A stretch of DNA of 63,765 nucleotides from contig CBEUCH010000018.1 in NCBI GenBank assembly GCA_965541585.1, positions 1 through 63,765 of the forward strand, written 5' to 3'. Positions 48,001 to 57,000 of this stretch are shown here, in pieces. The stretch is from an uncultured bacterium. GTDB taxonomy: Bacteria > Zixibacteria > MSB-5A5 > UBA10806. Position numbers: made by a program. Each line of letters begins with the position of its first letter. Positions within the stretch are counted from its first letter, which is position 1.

Positions 48001-51000
48001 TCTACAGGAATTATCGTCGTGGCATTAAAAGGATTGGGGTAGTTCTTCTTTAAGTTAAAACGCTTGGGTTTTTCAACGATATCATCATCTATTCCTGTTT
48101 GGATCTGGCTATAACGTACAATAATGCCATTCATTCCGACAGTGAAGCCAAGTTCCGAGTTAACAAAATGGACAGAGTTTAAGGACGAAAATATCCCCGC
48201 ATCAGCGTCAACCCAGGTGTTTCCGCCGTCGCTTGTCGATAGGACGGCACCACCATCTCCAACAACCCAGCCATTATTACTATCCACGAAGTAAATGTCT
48301 CTGAGAATAGTGACGGTCGGCGTATTTTGAAGAGTCCAGGAAGTTCCACCGTTATTGGTTTTTAAGATTATACCCTGATCACCGCAAACCCAACCCGTTT
48401 GTGAATCAATAAAAAACACTCCTCTGTGAGTTTCGAATGTGCCTGAAGGCTGAGAGGCCCATGAATTTCCACCATTAGATGTAAATAGGATCATTCCATC
48501 TTTACCGACGATCCAGGCCGTGGACGGGTTGTAAATCGCAATGGCATAAAGGTCGTCGACTGCTGGATTGGTTTGATGGTTCCAACTAATGCCTCCATCT
48601 GTAGTATGACGCAAGATCCCATCTCTGCCGACCGTCCAGCCGCTTAAATTATCAGCCATCCGAATATCCCGAAGCTTTTCGGCGACGCCTGAATTGAGGG
48701 GTGTCCAGTTATCGCCTCCATTGGTTGTGTGCAGCAACATCCCGTCATTACCACATACCCATCCCTCGTCTTCATTTATGAAATGGGTTGCCTCGGCGTC
48801 ATCGTTGGTGAAGAACATAGTCCAGTTATCTCCCCCGTCGACAGTGCGCAGGATACCCTGATCGCCGGCGCACCATCCATTCATAGAATCTGTGAAAAAG
48901 ACGTCGTTGATCGGCAGAGTAGTCGGCGAGTCCAGATATTCCCATTGGAACTCAATGCCTGCTGCCGGGCCGCCAATAAATAGCGCAACCGACAATACGA
49001 AGCCCGATAGCTTTTCCTTCATGATTTCTCCCTTCGCTTGTTGATTCAGTTATCAAGATGTATTCATCGTATATTTTAACTATGATTACCATTATCAAGT
49101 TCCTGGGTGCCTATAATCTTAGTGGCAATTATTAATGGTTAAAAGGGGAGATCGATCCATAATTATGAATATCGCAGCTGTACTCTTTACTTTACATAAC
49201 ACAATTGCATTTCTTTCGTATTGTTGTTAAATTAACTTGGCATGGTCAGAGGATCCGCTAAAAGCAATAAATCGGGCGTTAAGACATTTTTGAGTATTCT
49301 CTATGTGGTATCCTTCGCCGTTATCTTCTATCTTACGGTTGACGGGTTTTCATTTTACAAAACTTCTTATATGAAAAGACCGCGACACGAAGATTATAGA
49401 GTCTTGAGGCCCGCGGGACTGAAAGGACATGCGTTTGGGATAATCGGTTCGGCTATGATGCTGTTTATGCTTTTATATTCAATTCGTAAACGGACAGGGG
49501 CTTTCGGGAAATTAGGCAGGCTGAAGAGCTGGCTCGATATTCATATCTATTTTGGAATTACAGGACCGCTTTTGATAATCCTGCATACGTCTTTCAAGGT
49601 GCAAGGCCTGGTGGCGGTCAGCTTCTGGTCAATGGTGGCCGTTGCGCTGAGTGGAGTTTTCGGAAGATATTTGTACTTGCAGATTCCGCGCGATATTGAG
49701 GGTGAGCAGCTCGGCATCCAGGAAATAGAAAGATTAAAAGATGAAATTTCGAATCAATTAAATAACGCAACCAAATTTGACCAAAATCAAATGGAATTTA
49801 TTGAAAAAAGTTTATCATTGGATAGAAAGGAAAAAGGCGGGTTGTTCATGTCGCTCTGGGCGATTCTATCTGATGATTTAATGCGGCCCCTTAAGATAAG
49901 AAGGTTCAGGCGAAAGTATTTGAAAAAGCTCGATCTGCCGGATGAACTTGGAGATCGTATTTTGATCCTAACATTGGATAAATCGTTATTAAACAGGAAA
50001 ATCGCGTTTTTTAATCAGGTTCAAACACTTTTTCATTACTGGCATGTTTTTCATAAACCCTTTGCGATAATCATGTATCTGATAATGCTGGTACATGTGG
50101 CCGTCGCCGTATGGCTCGGTTATGTGTGGATGTTTTGATCAATCTTATGGCAACTATGAAAATACATATTGCGGGTAGCAAATCTATATCTCGTCACCTG
50201 CTCCTGGTATTATTATTCCTTTTAGTATCCGATAAAGGAGCCTACGCGCAATTATCTCCAGGAGAACTTCACAATTCTCACGCGAACCTCGAGGGTATAA
50301 AAAACTGTGAGAAATGTCACGAGACGGGCAAGCAGATAACCGGGAAAAAATGTCTAGAGTGTCATATATTTATTGCTGAGAATATTCAGTATGGTAAGGG
50401 ACTTCACGCAAATGAAGGTTTCGATGCATGCACGAACTGCCATGTTGAGCATCTGGGCAGAGAGTCTGAAATGATCTGGTGGAATGAGGGGATCGAAAAT
50501 TTCAATCATTCGCAAACCGGATATACTCTTCAGGGTAAGCATCAGGGAATATCTTGCCGCAGATGTCATAACAGCCAGAATATATACGAAGGAAATAGAA
50601 TTCTTGAAAGCGGCAAGGATCCTGACTTTACGTTTTTGGGACTTTCAAAAGCATGTATCCCCTGCCACCATGATGAGCACCGTGGCCAGCTCTCATCACA
50701 ATGCCTGAGATGTCACGTTATGGACGGATGGAAGACACCTGGAACGTTCGACCACAACAGCGCCAATTTCAAATTAACCGGTCGTCATCTTGAGACTGAT
50801 TGCAAAAAGTGTCATAAAACGGTAACCGATAGCCAGTATGAAGGTGATTCTGAATATGCCGTCTTCAAAAACGTTGACCATGAAAGTTGCGTGGATTGTC
50901 ATAGCGATTATCATAATGGGAAATTGGGCTCAGTATGCGAAAAATGCCATTCAACGTCGGGCTGGCGGGAGGTTAACAGGGCAGAATTCGATCATTCTAG

Positions 51001-54000: not shown

Positions 54001-57000
54001 TCTATTCTAATCGCCGATCATTGTCGATTCAAAGGTTTGAAGGATGAATAAATTAATCGCGACTTCAATTTTGACAATGGTATGTATTGCTAATATATCG
54101 GCGTCGGAAAAGGATTTCTTCAGGGTTAAATATATATCGTCCGAACATGTTTATATAGATGCCGGCGTGAAAGAGGGTCTGGAAGCTGGAACCAGGCTAA
54201 TTATAATTGGCAGCGAGATAGAAGTGGCGGAAGTTGAGGTTGTCTACACCGCAGAGAACTCATCATCCTGTAAAATTATAAGCAAGGTCGCGGATATAAA
54301 TAAAGGCGATTTGGCAAAGCTTAAAACTCGATCCGGATCAGCTGTTAAAACGTCCCGCGATTCATTATCTGTCCTTAAAAGTGAATCGGGCGAAGTTCTG
54401 GAGGCCGATAGGAACACTATTGAAATCGAGAAATCGGCGAGGATTAGAGGGAACGTGGCCGTTGGTTTCTTAAGCTGGAATGACAGAAACTCAAGTGATC
54501 TCGATTTTCGACAGCCGTGGGTAAGGCTGAAGATAACAGCGAGTGATCTTTTGGGAAGCGGTTATTTTTTAAGGGCCCGGCTGCGCTCCAGGTACAACCA
54601 GAGATCGAAACGATTTTCAGCCAATGTTCCGGAAAATGAGTGGAGGAATAAGATCTACGAATTCTCGTTTGGCCGGGGCGGAGATTTTGATAACGGATTC
54701 AGAATCGGTCGTATCATTCCCAATAGCCTGAGCGGCACCGGATACATTGATGGGATATTAATTCAAAAGAGGTTGTCCAATTCATTTAGGGCGGGCGTTT
54801 TCGGAGGAACTCAACCTGAGTGGCAATACGCGCGTGTTCAATCGTCGATTCAAAAATATGGTTTATATCTATCCGTCAGAAAGAATACGCAGGACGGCTG
54901 GCGCTTTACGTCATCTCTGGCGCTTGTCGCTGAATATCATCTGTCCACCGTAAGTCGTGAATTCTTGCATTTTAAGAGTAGTATTAACCGTGATCGGTGG
55001 TTCAGCGTTTACCAGAGCATCGATGTTGATATCAATCGCTCATGGCGTATGGATAAAGCAAATGAGAAGCTTTCGATCTCGAATTATTATTTCTCTGCTC
55101 GATACCGATTTAATCCAAGAATTAGTGCAGGCCTGACATATGATAACAGGAAGAGGTACTGGACATATGAGATGCGATCTCTCGCCGATAGTCTTTTCGA
55201 CGATTTAACCAGACGTGGATTAAAAACCTCGTTGATTGTGAAACTCCCCGGCGACATTAATATGAACTCCAGCTACGGTTTTAGGATGAGGGAGGGAGAG
55301 CAAAAGGCTTCTAAATCATATTTCATACGCCTGAATAAGTCGAATATTCCGGCCGTTCATCTTAGTGCAGGGATTCAGGTATCGGTATTCTCCAATTTAT
55401 ACAGCGACGGCCTGAATTTATCCTACAATCTGGGGAAATATTTCAGGCGGGGAGATTACCTGAATTTGAATATTGGGTCCTACGAGTATAAATATGACGC
55501 GACAAATACGCGAAGATCGAGCAAATGGATACAGTTAAGAGCATATCTCCGTTTTATGCGATCCGCCTTCTTATCGGCAGAATTTCAGTCAAGTTCCGGC
55601 GACGATATCGAGGGCTATCGATTCATATCGGAGATCGGGTATAATTTCAGGTAATTCATACTATGGAATCAATAATTATCTGGTTATCAGTGGCCGTAGT
55701 TTTTGCGGTGATATTCTTTCCATATTACCTGAAATTTCGCAAGAAACAGAAAGCGGACATCGAGAGAAAAAAGGAAGCGGAATCGATCGGTATCGGCAGG
55801 CCGAGATCGCAGTATCCTCTTGTAAATAACGCGGATTGCATAGGGTGCGGGTCGTGTGTCGAGGCTTGTCCTGAGGGCGACGTGCTCGGTGTTGTTTTTG
55901 GAAAAGCGGCGGTCATAAACGGGGACAGGTGCGTGGGACATGGGTATTGCGAACAGGTATGCCCGGTCGGAGCGTTGAATGTGGGCCTGGGAGATATTAA
56001 ACATCGCGACGATATCCCTGTATTAAATGAGTATAATGAATCGTCGGTACCCGGCTTATATATTGCGGGCGAGCTTGGAGGGATATCGCTTATCAGAAAC
56101 GCGATTTCTCAGGGTAAAATGGTGGTGAACAGGATTTCTGAAGTTATGAAAAAAAGCGGGGGAAGTGGAATTGATTATGATATAGCAATCGTGGGATGCG
56201 GACCCGCGGGGTTGAGCGCGTCTCTGACCGCGACGGAGAAAAAAATATCCTATATAGCTCTTGATCAGCAGAATCCTGGGGGGACCATTTTGCAATATCC
56301 CAGACAAAAACTTGTAATGACTCAGCCAGTGGATATTCCGCTTTACGGCAGACTTGATAATTCAGAATATTCCAAAGAACATCTTCTGGAAATATGGAAT
56401 TCCGTGATAGACAAGTTTGAACTTAATGTTAAGACGAAAATCAAAGTGGATAAAATCGATAATCAGAATTCCTTTTTCGCCATTGAAGCGGGCGATAGAT
56501 CGATCAAAGCGCGTAATATAATTTTAGCCATGGGGCGTCGCGGAATACCAAGAAAACTGGGGATACCCGGAGAGAATAAAAAGAAGGTGATGTACCAGCT
56601 TATTGACGCTCAATCTTACAATGATAATAATATACTGGTTGTTGGAGGAGGCGATAGCGCGATTGAATCTGCGATTGGTCTGGCTCGTCAGCCCGGAAAT
56701 AAAGTTTATCTCTCTTATAGAAAGAAAAAGCTTTTTAGAATTAAAAAGAAAAACGAAGAGAGGATAAACGAGCTGATCAGAAAAGGAGAAATAACGGCGA
56801 TATTTAACTCTAATGTCACTGAGATTAAAGATCAATCTGTTCTGATAGAGGAAAAAAATGAGATAATTGAAATTCCAAACGACTACATTTTCATTTTTGC
56901 GGGCGGGATACCGCCGTTTAAATTGCTGAAAGAGATGGGAATAGCGTTTGGCGGGGATGCAGTAAGTATGCTTGATTAGTTTGTACCATTCATAAGATAA

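Follow-up and report, generated by a model that had tools for sequence, protein, structure and literature searches.

Whether a cluster of multihaem cytochrome genes can encode a complete route for electrons from the cytoplasm to the cell surface is the question raised by positions 49242-56979 of contig CBEUCH010000018.1 (assembly GCA_965541585.1), a 63,765-nt stretch of DNA (the window) from an uncultured bacterium of the phylum Zixibacteria. A preliminary description had proposed such a conduit, fed by NAD(P)H or thiols, for five co-directional genes at this position. All five ORFs were recovered on the + strand, tightly packed and with intergenic gaps of -4 to 46 nt. They are referred to below as B, c20, cV, OM, and F:

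49023-49241, no strand: divergent intergenic region 5' of the cassette, 219 nt, AT-rich; presumed promoter region
49242-50138, + strand: B, 298 aa; inner-membrane protein, putative di-haem b cytochrome
50111-51874, + strand: c20, 587 aa from the ORF start; periplasmic cytochrome c with 20 CxxCH motifs
51826-53997, + strand: cV, 723 aa from a GTG (708 aa if the ATG at 51871 is the start); 28-CxxCH cytochrome c
53191-53672, + strand: 216-bp tandem DNA repeat within cV (Tandem Repeats Finder); the unit corresponds to 72 aa and 3 haems
54044-55654, + strand: OM, 536 aa; outer-membrane protein with an AF2-modelled 22-strand barrel
55663-56979, + strand: F, 438 aa; membrane-anchored flavoprotein with two [Fe-S] clusters and a TrxR/FNR-like domain

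Although the c20 ORF opens at 50111, its likely start is the ATG at 50147 or 50156, past the stop codon of B, and the ATG of cV overlaps the c20 stop as ATGA. A - strand gene ending at 49022 borders the upstream gap, in which the cassette promoter is presumed to lie. The scan listed no promoter-like sites in the interval 49023-49241; on the + strand the nearest one (49552-49579) is inside gene B, and the 22 sites in the scanned region 47400-58200 were not in excess of the shuffle mean of 23.4.

Of 18 regions taken from genomes of the phylum, 14 showed the order B-c20-cV-OM-F. Overall, 57 of 112 fetched loci had it; this set was not de-duplicated, at least two pairs in it represent the same contig, and most other loci were subsets cut by contig ends. 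Among 151 genomes of the phylum, the OM barrel was detected in 49, B in 47, and, on comparison of both genome lists, the two together in 46. The barrel was also detected in Calditrichota, and the cultured Caldithrix abyssi has a homologue. F was present in the cassette at every complete locus and lay next to B where the order deviated (B-F-c20 in four loci, F-B-c20 in two), and the barrel gene always lay directly 3' of the last cytochrome gene. In five loci cV and OM occurred alone, as a second copy, in keeping with an MtrAB-type module of cytochrome and barrel. Genes flanking the cassette showed no conservation across the loci compared. These observations indicate that B, c20, cV, OM, and F form a single conserved unit of Zixibacteria and Calditrichota. 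No published description of the cassette, which is so far unnamed, was found; 'porin-cytochrome operons' have been reported by FeGenie for one Zixibacteria genome, without detail (PMC7005843).

A recount agreed that c20 and cV have the two highest numbers of CxxCH motifs, 20 and 28, among the 16 ORFs with at least three such motifs in the genome (3.52 Mb), and these counts are far above chance. The NCBIfam scores quoted in the preliminary description were reproduced (49 and 44.4 bits for c20, 41.3 and 22.9 bits for cV). Its statement that B, c20, and OM lack Pfam and NCBIfam rows held for B and OM, but c20 gave Pfam rows above cut-off for Cytochrome_C7 (75.6 bits), Cytochrom_c3_2, Cytochrom_CIII, and MtrC/MtrF domain II/IV. 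With cV scoring 84.4 bits against Cytochrome_C7, both cytochromes are, as judged from these profile matches, built from ordinary c7/c3-type modules; sequence searches turned up no relative of solved structure. Exactly 20 CxxCH motifs were present in 70 of 73 complete c20 orthologues. Orthologues of cV ranged from 10 to 73 haems, with 3n+1 haems in 43 of 47 single-gene copies. In cV itself, a haem spacing of 32-15-25 residues recurs at least seven times as a 72-aa trihaem unit, and the tandem DNA repeat (period 216) comprises 1.9-2.2 copies with 78-83% matches. Separate 10-haem proteins of approximately 265 aa from other loci aligned to the two ends of cV (residues ~16-280 and ~490-723). Consistent with these alignments, cV can be described as a 10-haem core lengthened by an internal run of trihaem repeats. 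Non-motif histidines (25 of the 45 His in c20, 32 in cV) are sufficient for bis-His ligation of every haem. The cytochrome c20 has a single N-terminal hydrophobic stretch. Nothing marks cV as surface-exposed, since its signal peptide is ordinary and a lipobox is absent. Tandem trihaem units forming a long haem chain are also found in c7 polymers (Geobacter GSU1996 family; TIGR04257 'nanowire_3heme'), with which the cassette cytochromes share their Cytochrome_C7 matches. However, c20 scored only 18.1 bits against TIGR04257 (cut-off 40) and cV gave no row, and in the cassette a barrel is encoded next to the polymer, whose copy number differs between genomes.

OM, previously described as ending in a barrel-like tail, terminates in GYNFR, which is the GYRF beta-signal of the family consensus plus one extra residue. 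It had no Pfam or NCBIfam family match. Its signal peptide is followed by a small beta domain at residues 25-93 and a linker, 97-126, that is disordered. In the AF2 model (mean pLDDT 83.7), residues 133-535 form a 22-strand barrel without a plug. With this model, Foldseek retrieved usher pores and porins (E 2e-9), and VIA-align retrieved 22-strand TonB-dependent transporter barrels (Z 17.6, 357 aligned residues, rmsd 4.5). From the model and these matches, OM can be predicted with good confidence to be a large, plug-less 22-strand outer-membrane barrel, as had been suspected. A fused cytochrome was absent from all eight longer barrel homologues inspected. The fold also superposed on MtrB (6r2q_B; Z 13.4, 331 aligned residues, rmsd 7.0), but OM matches neither the PF11854 nor the TIGR models that would link it to MtrB/PioB, has no sequence relation to the phylum's true MtrB-like proteins (hhalign probability 0.9%), and has 22 modelled strands, whereas MtrB has 26 strands around the 10-haem MtrA.

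B had been described as a 4-TM protein without any family. The hydropathy peaks were confirmed, but its AF2 model (pLDDT 83) contains five long, membrane-length helices, with a helical soluble insert of ~110 aa at residues 150-256. Searched alone, B had no hit at E<=0.01 in Pfam or NCBIfam, and its DUF4405 score was 10.7 bits (cut-off 26.7). At E<=1, 39 of the 46 family members touched DUF4405, 35 Ferric_reduct, and 19 Ni_hydr_CYTB. His101/His115 and His271/His285, each pair spaced His-x13-His, were invariant together with His265 in 16 cassette orthologues, while His101, 115, 268, 271, and 285 were invariant among the 46 family members, and both pairs sit on two long helices. B thus has four histidines on two helices, in pairs 14 residues apart, the signature of di-haem transmembrane cytochromes b that is also seen in NOX, FRE, STEAP, MsrQ, and the DUF4405 cytochromes b. 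Its layout resembles that of ferric-reductase-domain proteins, in which two stacked haems serve transmembrane electron transfer, although B differs from these in its five helices and large insert and misses their Pfam cut-offs. Fold searches gave nothing above noise (Foldseek, E>=1; VIA-align, best Z 8.7, with Z scores of 7.2 for STEAP1 and 7.0 for the NOX5 membrane domain falling within that noise), and positive-inside counts were ambiguous because the first and second loops each carry approximately +5 charge. B is therefore weakly predicted to be DUF4405/ferric-reductase-like. Haem b binding has been demonstrated for a DUF4405 protein (bioRxiv 10.1101/2024.03.13.584918).

F starts with a membrane helix and a K/R-rich stretch, which are followed by a ferredoxin domain with two [Fe-S] motifs (CxxCxxCxxxCP and CxxHxxCxxxCP) and a TrxR/FNR-like domain for binding FAD and NAD(P). 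It matched Pyr_redox_3 (165.8 bits), Fer4 families, and, as reported before, the NCBIfam YpdA model (171.2 bits, cut-off 339.9); its best PDB matches were YpdA/Bdr (9.6e-22), TrxR, and ferredoxin-NADP reductases, and it resembles TrxR-type members of the latter. Residues C59, C65, C69, C90, H93, C96, and C100 were invariant and C62 nearly so, one cluster motif thus having an invariant His in place of its second Cys. Because the K/R-rich segment follows the only membrane helix, the domain should be cytoplasmic by the positive-inside rule, which supports the earlier assignment of F as a TrxR/FNR-type Fe-S flavoprotein that faces the cytoplasm. In the orthologue alignment the flavin domain had no conserved Cys and hence no redox disulfide. 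Since conserved Cys residues occur only in the Fe-S motifs, F is not a disulfide reductase, and the earlier proposal of thiols as electron source is unlikely.

Given the conserved unit, the modelled OM barrel, the Fe-S flavoprotein F, and the di-haem signature of B, a trans-envelope electron path is the most economical reading, and on balance the five genes probably encode one porin-cytochrome conduit with its own quinone-independent, NOX-like entry at the inner membrane. Electrons from NAD(P)H would be accepted at the flavin of F and passed to its two Fe-S clusters, cross the inner membrane through two bis-His haems b of B, one near each face, and traverse the periplasm via c20 with its fixed haem number. 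With its 10-haem core and trihaem units, cV would sit in or thread the OM barrel, and cV/OM would deliver electrons outside the cell to acceptors that are insoluble or large, for example Fe(III)/Mn(IV) minerals, humics, or partner cells. Flow direction, partners, surface exposure of cV, and all physical contacts are part of what we infer. In sediment bacteria with a fermentative or anaerobic life, the route would likely act as an electron sink for the re-oxidation of NAD(P)H. B and F can be likened to NADPH oxidase and ferric reductase split over separate proteins: as in NOX, the donor would be an FAD/NAD(P)H domain in the cytoplasm, but this domain is a separate TrxR-fold protein with two [Fe-S] clusters instead of a fused FNR-fold domain. 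Counting against the conduit reading are the weak matches of B and its ambiguous charge counts, the absence of any surface mark on cV, and the lack of a fused cytochrome in the longer barrel homologues. In addition, we know of no precedent for a haem-loaded rod of 28 to 73 haems through a 22-strand barrel, and outward flow via B would dissipate membrane potential, so that this route alone conserves no energy.

The same hardware would permit reverse flow, from a donor outside the cell (an Fe(II) mineral, a cathodic surface, or a syntrophic partner) through cV/OM, c20, B, and F to NAD(P)+. With the membrane potential pulling electrons in, this would give lithotrophy a direct reverse-electron route. 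All structural evidence is direction-symmetric, and by established bioenergetics an inside-negative potential should favour inward movement through a di-haem b protein. Against this, the gap between Fe(II) couples and NAD(P)+ (approximately -320 mV) exceeds one membrane potential for most donors, and a variable, very long cytochrome suits reaching acceptors or partners equally well as uptake; inward flow is possible but unlikely. Earlier genome papers favoured iron oxidation over reduction in Zixibacteria because extracellular MtrC-type cytochromes were missing, an argument that there concerned another, Mtr-like cluster and not B-c20-cV-OM-F (PMC3903129; PMC4411801).

It is rather doubtful that the cytochromes form a periplasmic electron store or soluble-substrate reductase, with no protein wire through the outer membrane and with the barrel as an uptake channel for a substrate such as chelated metals, humic analogues, or polysulfide. 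The plain signal peptide of cV, which carries no surface-sorting signal, the superposition of OM best on 22-strand transporter barrels and substrate-specific porins (e.g., Occ/OprD), and the periplasmic location described for c7-type multihaem polymers in Geobacter would all suit a store. However, the invariable position of the barrel gene after the last cytochrome gene and the stand-alone cV-OM pairs speak for the trans-envelope conduit, a plug-less 22-strand barrel left unfilled would open a very wide pore, and up to 73 haems, at ~1 nm per haem, extend far beyond the width of the periplasm. Finally, it is very improbable that B is a quinol oxidase feeding c20 from the quinone pool, with F as a maintenance or regulatory enzyme (e.g., in haem or thiol redox care), because, although the inner-membrane b-type cytochromes that are paired with multihaem cytochromes in Geobacter (CbcL, CbcBA) usually oxidise quinol and five other cytochrome b genes in this genome, which are PetB-like, adjoin or lie within multihaem cytochrome genes, B has no profile similarity to PetB-like cytochromes b (hhalign probability 0.9%) and F is membrane-anchored, kept in every complete locus, relocated specifically beside B, and equipped with the invariant His-containing cluster motif.

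The preliminary description had called the parts unlike those of Mtr, Pcc, or Ext systems, which applies to the barrel and the inner-membrane module but not to the ordinary cytochrome modules. A quinone-independent link between periplasm and cytoplasm is shared with Tmc/Hmc of sulfate reducers, which join a multihaem cytochrome c in the periplasm to a cytochrome b in the membrane and an Fe-S protein in the cytoplasm. However, the HmcA model gave 41-44 bits (cut-off 400) with the cassette cytochromes, the cytoplasmic partner is a flavoprotein instead of an HdrD-like CCG protein, and those complexes include no barrel. Geobacter Pcc (OmaB-OmbB-OmcB) and Ext likewise combine a barrel, periplasmic and outer cytochromes, and c7/c3-like modules, but, as generally described, these clusters have an outer lipoprotein cytochrome and lack the flavoprotein and b-type entry of the cassette. 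As in MtrAB(C), PioAB, and MtoAB, a periplasmic multihaem cytochrome gene directly adjoins a large outer-membrane barrel gene, and the minimal cV (10 haems in ~265 aa) is of the size class of MtrA. In contrast to MtrAB(C), there is no MtrC-type lipoprotein, and cV consists of c7/c3-type trihaem units with 10 to 73 haems. True MtrB/PioB genes occurred in 12 of the 151 genomes, five of them strong matches, as a system separate from the cassette.

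Five co-directional ORFs occupied positions 49242-56979 of the window, at spacings of -4 to 46 nt and downstream of a divergent, AT-rich intergenic region of 219 nt.

Genes of the five-gene cassette in the window
49242-50138, + strand: B, putative inner-membrane di-haem b protein; 298 aa, without cysteine and without a Pfam or NCBIfam family at the usual thresholds
50111-51874 (ORF), + strand: c20, cytochrome with 20 CxxCH motifs
51826-53997 (ORF), + strand: cV, cytochrome of variable length with 28 CxxCH motifs in this copy; likely start ATG 51871, giving 708 aa
54044-55654, + strand: OM, predicted outer-membrane barrel protein; 536 aa, with a signal peptide but neither a hydrophobic helix nor a family assignment
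55663-56979, + strand: F, putative membrane-anchored Fe-S flavoprotein; 438 aa, with an N-terminal hydrophobic helix, a K/R-rich stretch, a ferredoxin domain for two [Fe-S] clusters and a Pyr_redox_3/thioredoxin-reductase-like flavin domain

The likely start codon of cV overlaps the c20 stop codon as ATGA. Across the full ORF set of the 3.52-Mb genome (98% complete), c20 and cV had the highest CxxCH counts among the 16 ORFs with at least three such motifs. The preliminary description of five genes, with 20 and 28 CxxCH motifs and a 708-aa cV, was thereby confirmed. Its statement that members of the group lacked a Pfam or NCBIfam family held for B and OM, but not for c20, which matched Pfam Cytochrome_C7 and other families. 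Matches to promoter and terminator consensus sequences in the cassette region were no more frequent than in shuffled sequence. Among the listed datasets containing the 7.7-kb cassette stretch, none was an RNA dataset, and the DNA datasets contained it as a small share only.

The five genes form one conserved cassette. In 151 sampled genomes of the phylum, the barrel was present in 49 (23 of 88 genera) and B in 47; comparison of the two lists showed both genes in 46 genomes, the barrel alone in three and a weak B match alone in one. The order B-c20-cV-OM-F was found in 14 of 18 regions fetched around barrel matches. One of the other four was cut by a contig end, one had F ahead of B, and two contained only the cV and OM genes of a divergent paralogue. 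A scan of contigs from one genome per species yielded 61 further loci, which by record title belonged to Zixibacteria, Calditrichota (a Caldithrix abyssi MAG among them) and a small number of MAGs labelled KSB1 or otherwise, while a B-seeded metagenome scan yielded 33 loci of at least 6 kb each. Gene orders were tallied over 112 loci, a set that includes duplicates (L013 and L035 on one contig, L029 and L071 on another) and related, non-independent genomes.

Gene order at 112 cassette loci
B-c20-cV-OM-F, complete: 57
B-F-c20 onwards: 4
F-B-c20 onwards: 2
cV and OM alone: 5
Extra cV gene after OM: 1 (L065)
c20 listed ahead of B: 3, with c20 ORFs whose long 5' extensions overlap B
Remaining subsets: 40, consistent with truncation at contig ends

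OM directly followed cV in all loci that had both. The tally indicated that F relocates only beside B and that cV and OM behave as a separate module. Five stand-alone cytochrome-barrel pairs (L023, L025, L063, L070 and L073) encoded 10 to 49 haems, with B, c20 and F absent within approximately 9 kb; some cV-OM pairs were second copies, in genomes with a full cassette elsewhere. L023, L025 and L026 belonged to a divergent barrel clade. In a tree of 75 barrels, which lacks a known root and so points to no donor, Zixibacteria copies were nested inside a grade of Calditrichota copies, and the window's barrel was sister to those of two Zixibacteria-type loci. One KSB1-labelled MAG (L042) had B, c20 and the barrel each in two ORFs and no detected cV gene, and may carry a decaying copy or assembly errors. 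Contigs titled 'Ignavibacteria' (L071, compared with L029, and L035, compared with L013) encoded barrels identical or close to those of genomes that the genome search assigned to the window's phylum, so that the title labels of some MAGs look unreliable.

OM had no Pfam match at E<=0.1 and no NCBIfam match at E<=0.01. An AlphaFold2 model based on a 40-sequence alignment (mean pLDDT 83.7) comprised a small beta domain (residues 25-93), a disordered linker (97-126) and 22 strands (133-535), without a plug. Foldseek searches with this model returned outer-membrane barrels only, namely usher pores and porins with E-values as low as 2e-9, and the family's C-terminus, ending in GYRF, is a normal beta-signal. 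With VIA-align, the best superpositions were on the 22-strand barrels of TonB-dependent transporters (Z 17.6, 357 aligned residues, rmsd 4.5); MtrB was matched at Z 13.4 (331 aligned, rmsd 7.0). The small N-terminal domain resembled a domain of a flagellar-ring component (8z5n_5; Z 12.0, 72 aligned, rmsd 1.6). No sequence relation to MtrB/PioB was found: OM did not match the profiles of that family (PF11854, TIGR03509), PF11854 had no match in the whole genome, and an hhalign comparison of the OM family with four true MtrB-like proteins of the phylum gave a probability of 0.9%. True PF11854 members occurred in 12 of the 151 genomes, as a separate system. MtrB/PioB-type barrels scoring up to 374 bits were located at L172-L176 (genomes G080, G004, G026, G037 and G138), a small and different subset; in G004, an MtrB-type gene coexisted with the cassette.

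In a set of 1.84 billion protein representatives, the barrel family had 2,434 representatives (50% identity) at E<=0.001, a number that fell to 947 at E<=1e-30, and every source name seen was 'hypothetical protein'. Eight longer homologues contained no CxxCH motif that would mark a barrel-cytochrome fusion; they had additional beta domains at the N-terminus and long linkers rich in Ala and Pro. Longer homologues P0441, P0462, P0442, P0464 and P0502 showed two copies of the small N-terminal beta domain, an SH3-like insert and linkers rich in Ala, Pro and Thr that reached approximately 200 residues, which suggests a tethered periplasmic domain.

As judged from their profile matches, both cytochromes are built of c7/c3-type modules. 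With Cytochrome_C7 (PF14522, cut-off 24.8 bits), c20 scored 75.6 bits in six stretches and cV 84.4 bits in four. Scores for the MtrA/DmsE decahaem family (TIGR03508, cut-off 192.2 bits) were 49 for c20 and 22.9 for cV, and those for the hexadecahaem HmcA (NF045713, cut-off 400 bits) were 44.4 and 41.3; a sequence search returned no solved relatives of either protein. The haem number of c20 was constant, with exactly 20 CxxCH motifs in 70 of 73 complete orthologues. That of cV ranged from 10 to 73 at loci with a single cV gene, and 43 of 47 single-gene copies had 3n+1 haems, a count that left out loci with split or overlapping ORFs. Since ORFs at fetched loci were called mechanically, from the first start codon after a stop, some haem counts in such split or overlapping ORFs are unreliable. 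Two or three consecutive cV genes occurred in some genomes. In the window copy, haems were spaced at 32-15-25 residues over at least seven repeats, the last of which were still recognisable as a 216-bp tandem DNA repeat. Proteins of approximately 265 aa with 10 haems, encoded directly 5' of the barrel at many loci, aligned with both ends of cV, which indicates that cV is a 10-haem core expanded from within by 72-aa trihaem units. Each repeat unit has three His residues outside the haem motifs. The 25 and 32 such spare His residues in c20 and cV, respectively, would make bis-His ligation possible throughout both proteins.

The B family, with over 2,500 members at 90% clustering, has five invariant His residues (His101, His115, His268, His271 and His285), and His265 is nearly invariant. 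In a predicted structure (pLDDT 83), His101 and His115 lie on helix 94-116 and His271 and His285 on the long last helix (257-297); a helical insert of approximately 110 residues separates helices 4 and 5. In this model, the two conserved His pairs thus lie on two membrane helices at a spacing that would suit two haems b. In proteins such as cytochrome b and NADPH oxidase, two stacked haems b are classically marked by two His-x13-His pairs on two parallel helices.

Among 46 B-family members, matches at E<=1 were obtained with DUF4405 (PF14358) for 39 (best E 3.3e-6), with Ferric_reduct (PF01794) for 35 (best E 0.0021) and with Ni_hydr_CYTB for 19. B itself scored far below the Pfam gathering thresholds for DUF4405 (10.7 bits, cut-off 26.7) and the ferric reductase domain (11.9 bits, cut-off 28), and membership of either was not established. 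Superposition of the B model on STEAP1 (6y9b_C; Z 7.2, 156 aligned, rmsd 6.7) and NOX5 (5o0t_A; Z 7.0, 155 aligned, rmsd 5.8) gave values within the noise range for helical models, and a Foldseek search with the model found no match at E<1. Haem b binding by a DUF4405 protein is shown in a preprint (bioRxiv 10.1101/2024.03.13.584918). In relatives, PF14358 matches were mostly PetB-like cytochromes b rather than clean DUF4405 proteins, and hhalign gave a probability of 0.9% for the B family against these PetB-like proteins. Because the profile comparison met PetB-like proteins, the B-DUF4405 link consists of the weak HMM matches and the His pattern. The short DUF4405 model matched five more sites in the genome (C25:15735, C4:35920, C4:67984, C2:120350 and C6:140260), which adjoin or lie within other multihaem ORFs with 8, 8, 10, 9 and 11 CxxCH motifs, respectively, indicating that the genome has several pairs of cytochrome b and multihaem cytochrome c beyond the cassette. 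The single match checked in this genome, and several in relatives, were PetB-like cytochromes b.

F retains the motifs CxxCxxCxxxCP and CxxHxxCxxxCP, the His of the latter being kept in all 37 sequences compared; dinucleotide-binding GxGxxG motifs are conserved at residues 178-183 and 328-333. No conserved Cys was found outside the Fe-S motifs, including in the flavin domain. Database names of homologues ('thioredoxin reductase', 'YpdA family', 'NAD(P)-binding') were automatic. In YpdA/Bdr proteins, a conserved active Cys lies in the region of the first GxGxxG motif; the only Cys that F has there, C179, was kept in 6% of orthologues. Identity as a YpdA/Bdr bacillithiol-disulfide reductase (TIGR04018; 171.2 bits, cut-off 339.9) was rejected in view of this unconserved Cys, as was identity as a thioredoxin reductase (TIGR01292; 99 bits, cut-off 343), for which a redox-active CxxC is missing. 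With no conserved Cys in its flavin domain, F belongs neither to the thioredoxin reductases nor to the YpdA-type thiol reductases. By its matches to ferredoxin-NADP reductases in the PDB (2.7e-10 to 2.6e-6), F resembles the ferredoxin-NAD(P)+ reductases of thioredoxin-reductase fold, which are two-dinucleotide-fold flavoproteins that lack a disulfide and work with an Fe-S partner; F has a fused ferredoxin domain and may be an enzyme of this type. The absence of a twin-arginine signal and the K/R-rich segment after the helix suggest that the domains of F lie in the cytoplasm. A complex prediction for B and F scored 0.07 against a mark of 0.32, which is evidence neither for nor against contact.

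As the most likely function of the cassette, we infer for every step an outward conduit from NAD(P)H to an extracellular acceptor. NAD(P)H would reduce the FAD of F, whose two Fe-S clusters would relay electrons onward to the two haems b of B for passage over the inner membrane. c20 would carry them across the periplasm to cV, which would sit in the OM barrel or thread through it and deliver them to the extracellular acceptor. The constant 20 haems of c20 fit a fixed distance, that of the periplasm, and the variable cV fits a variable distance beyond the outer membrane, which is suggestive but not proof. The same hardware could run inward for electron uptake, a direction that the membrane potential would aid; this is an unlikely reading. 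At the gene level, the cassette falls in the porin-cytochrome class, as the gene for a barrel modelled without a plug adjoins a secreted multihaem cytochrome gene. Confinement of the cytochromes to the periplasm, with the barrel as a substrate channel, is quite improbable. The outward conduit would need no quinone and would itself conserve no energy, so that it would act as an NAD(P)H electron sink in fermenting or anaerobically respiring cells; that B is instead a quinol oxidase, with F as an accessory, seems very improbable.

A more far-reaching form of the outward conduit is offered tentatively and is, as a whole, rather doubtful. It would be a quinone-independent 'bacterial NOX turned outward', in which electrons from cytoplasmic NAD(P)H pass through a split flavoprotein/Fe-S/di-haem-b module to c20 and then to a cV threaded through the 22-strand barrel. 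Gain and loss of 72-aa trihaem units would tune the extracellular reach of cV by lineage, from roughly 10 nm with 10 haems to 70 nm with 73, making it a genetically length-adjustable, single-polypeptide nanowire, and in sediments the system might serve Zixibacteria and Calditrichota as their principal path for extracellular electron transfer.

Porin-cytochrome conduits (Mtr, Pio/Mto, Pcc and Ext) and polymers of c7 domains are already known. The general conduit logic of the cassette is familiar; what is unfamiliar is its barrel family, its split NOX-like entry and its length-variable cytochrome. Zixibacteria and Calditrichota abound in sediments and are for the most part uncultured, and what they contribute to the cycling of metals and carbon has been derived from genomes. 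Arguments about their iron metabolism have until now relied on Mtr-like genes. Such genes are absent from most sampled genomes (12 of 151 with a match), and the cassette is commoner (barrel in 49 of 151). In earlier papers, Zixibacteria are credited with mtrAB-like genes (PMC3903129, PMC4411801, PMC9769843) and 'porin-cytochrome operons' (PMC7005843). Judged by the text of the paper, the 'Mtr' cluster of Castelle et al. (PMC3903129) appears to differ from the cassette, as that text mentions PetAB and monohaem cytochromes. A literature search found no description of the cassette, the barrel family, the 3n+1 rule or the B-F entry module. Term searches found no mention in PMC7399161, PMC11475568 and 10.64898/2026.05.27.727921 and no discussion of the cassette in the Caldithrix genome paper (PMC5317091). 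If correct, the proposed function would add a new family of outer-membrane barrels that serve electron conduits and a direct entry of electrons from NAD(P)H to the periplasm that bypasses quinones. It would also provide a natural series of cytochrome wires that vary in their number of trihaem units and in nothing else, a resource for the study and engineering of electron transfer over long distances. Caldithrix abyssi is a cultured carrier, which would make the reading testable.

Upstream of the cassette, positions 41119-47517 (+ strand) contain an operon for a molybdoenzyme of the type II DMSO-reductase family, encoding a 1148-aa molybdopterin subunit, an EB_dh (ethylbenzene-dehydrogenase-type haem b) subunit, a 4x Fe-S subunit and a NarJ-like chaperone. 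This operon was ruled out as part of the cassette, to which it is not linked in other genomes. Across 24 loci, no conserved flanking genes were found, and the flanks had in common only proteins that carry C-terminal sorting domains for type IX secretion and are otherwise unrelated. In the window, such domains flank the cassette at four positions on the - strand:

47802-49022, - strand: protein with type IX sorting domain
58642-61650, - strand: protein with type IX sorting domain
61686-63113, - strand: protein with type IX sorting domain
63173-63715, - strand: protein with type IX sorting domain

These flanking proteins were BNR/Ycf48-like, beta-helix/NosD-like and disaggregatase-related. Proteins with this tail recurred beside the cassette at other loci and were mutually unrelated except for the tail.
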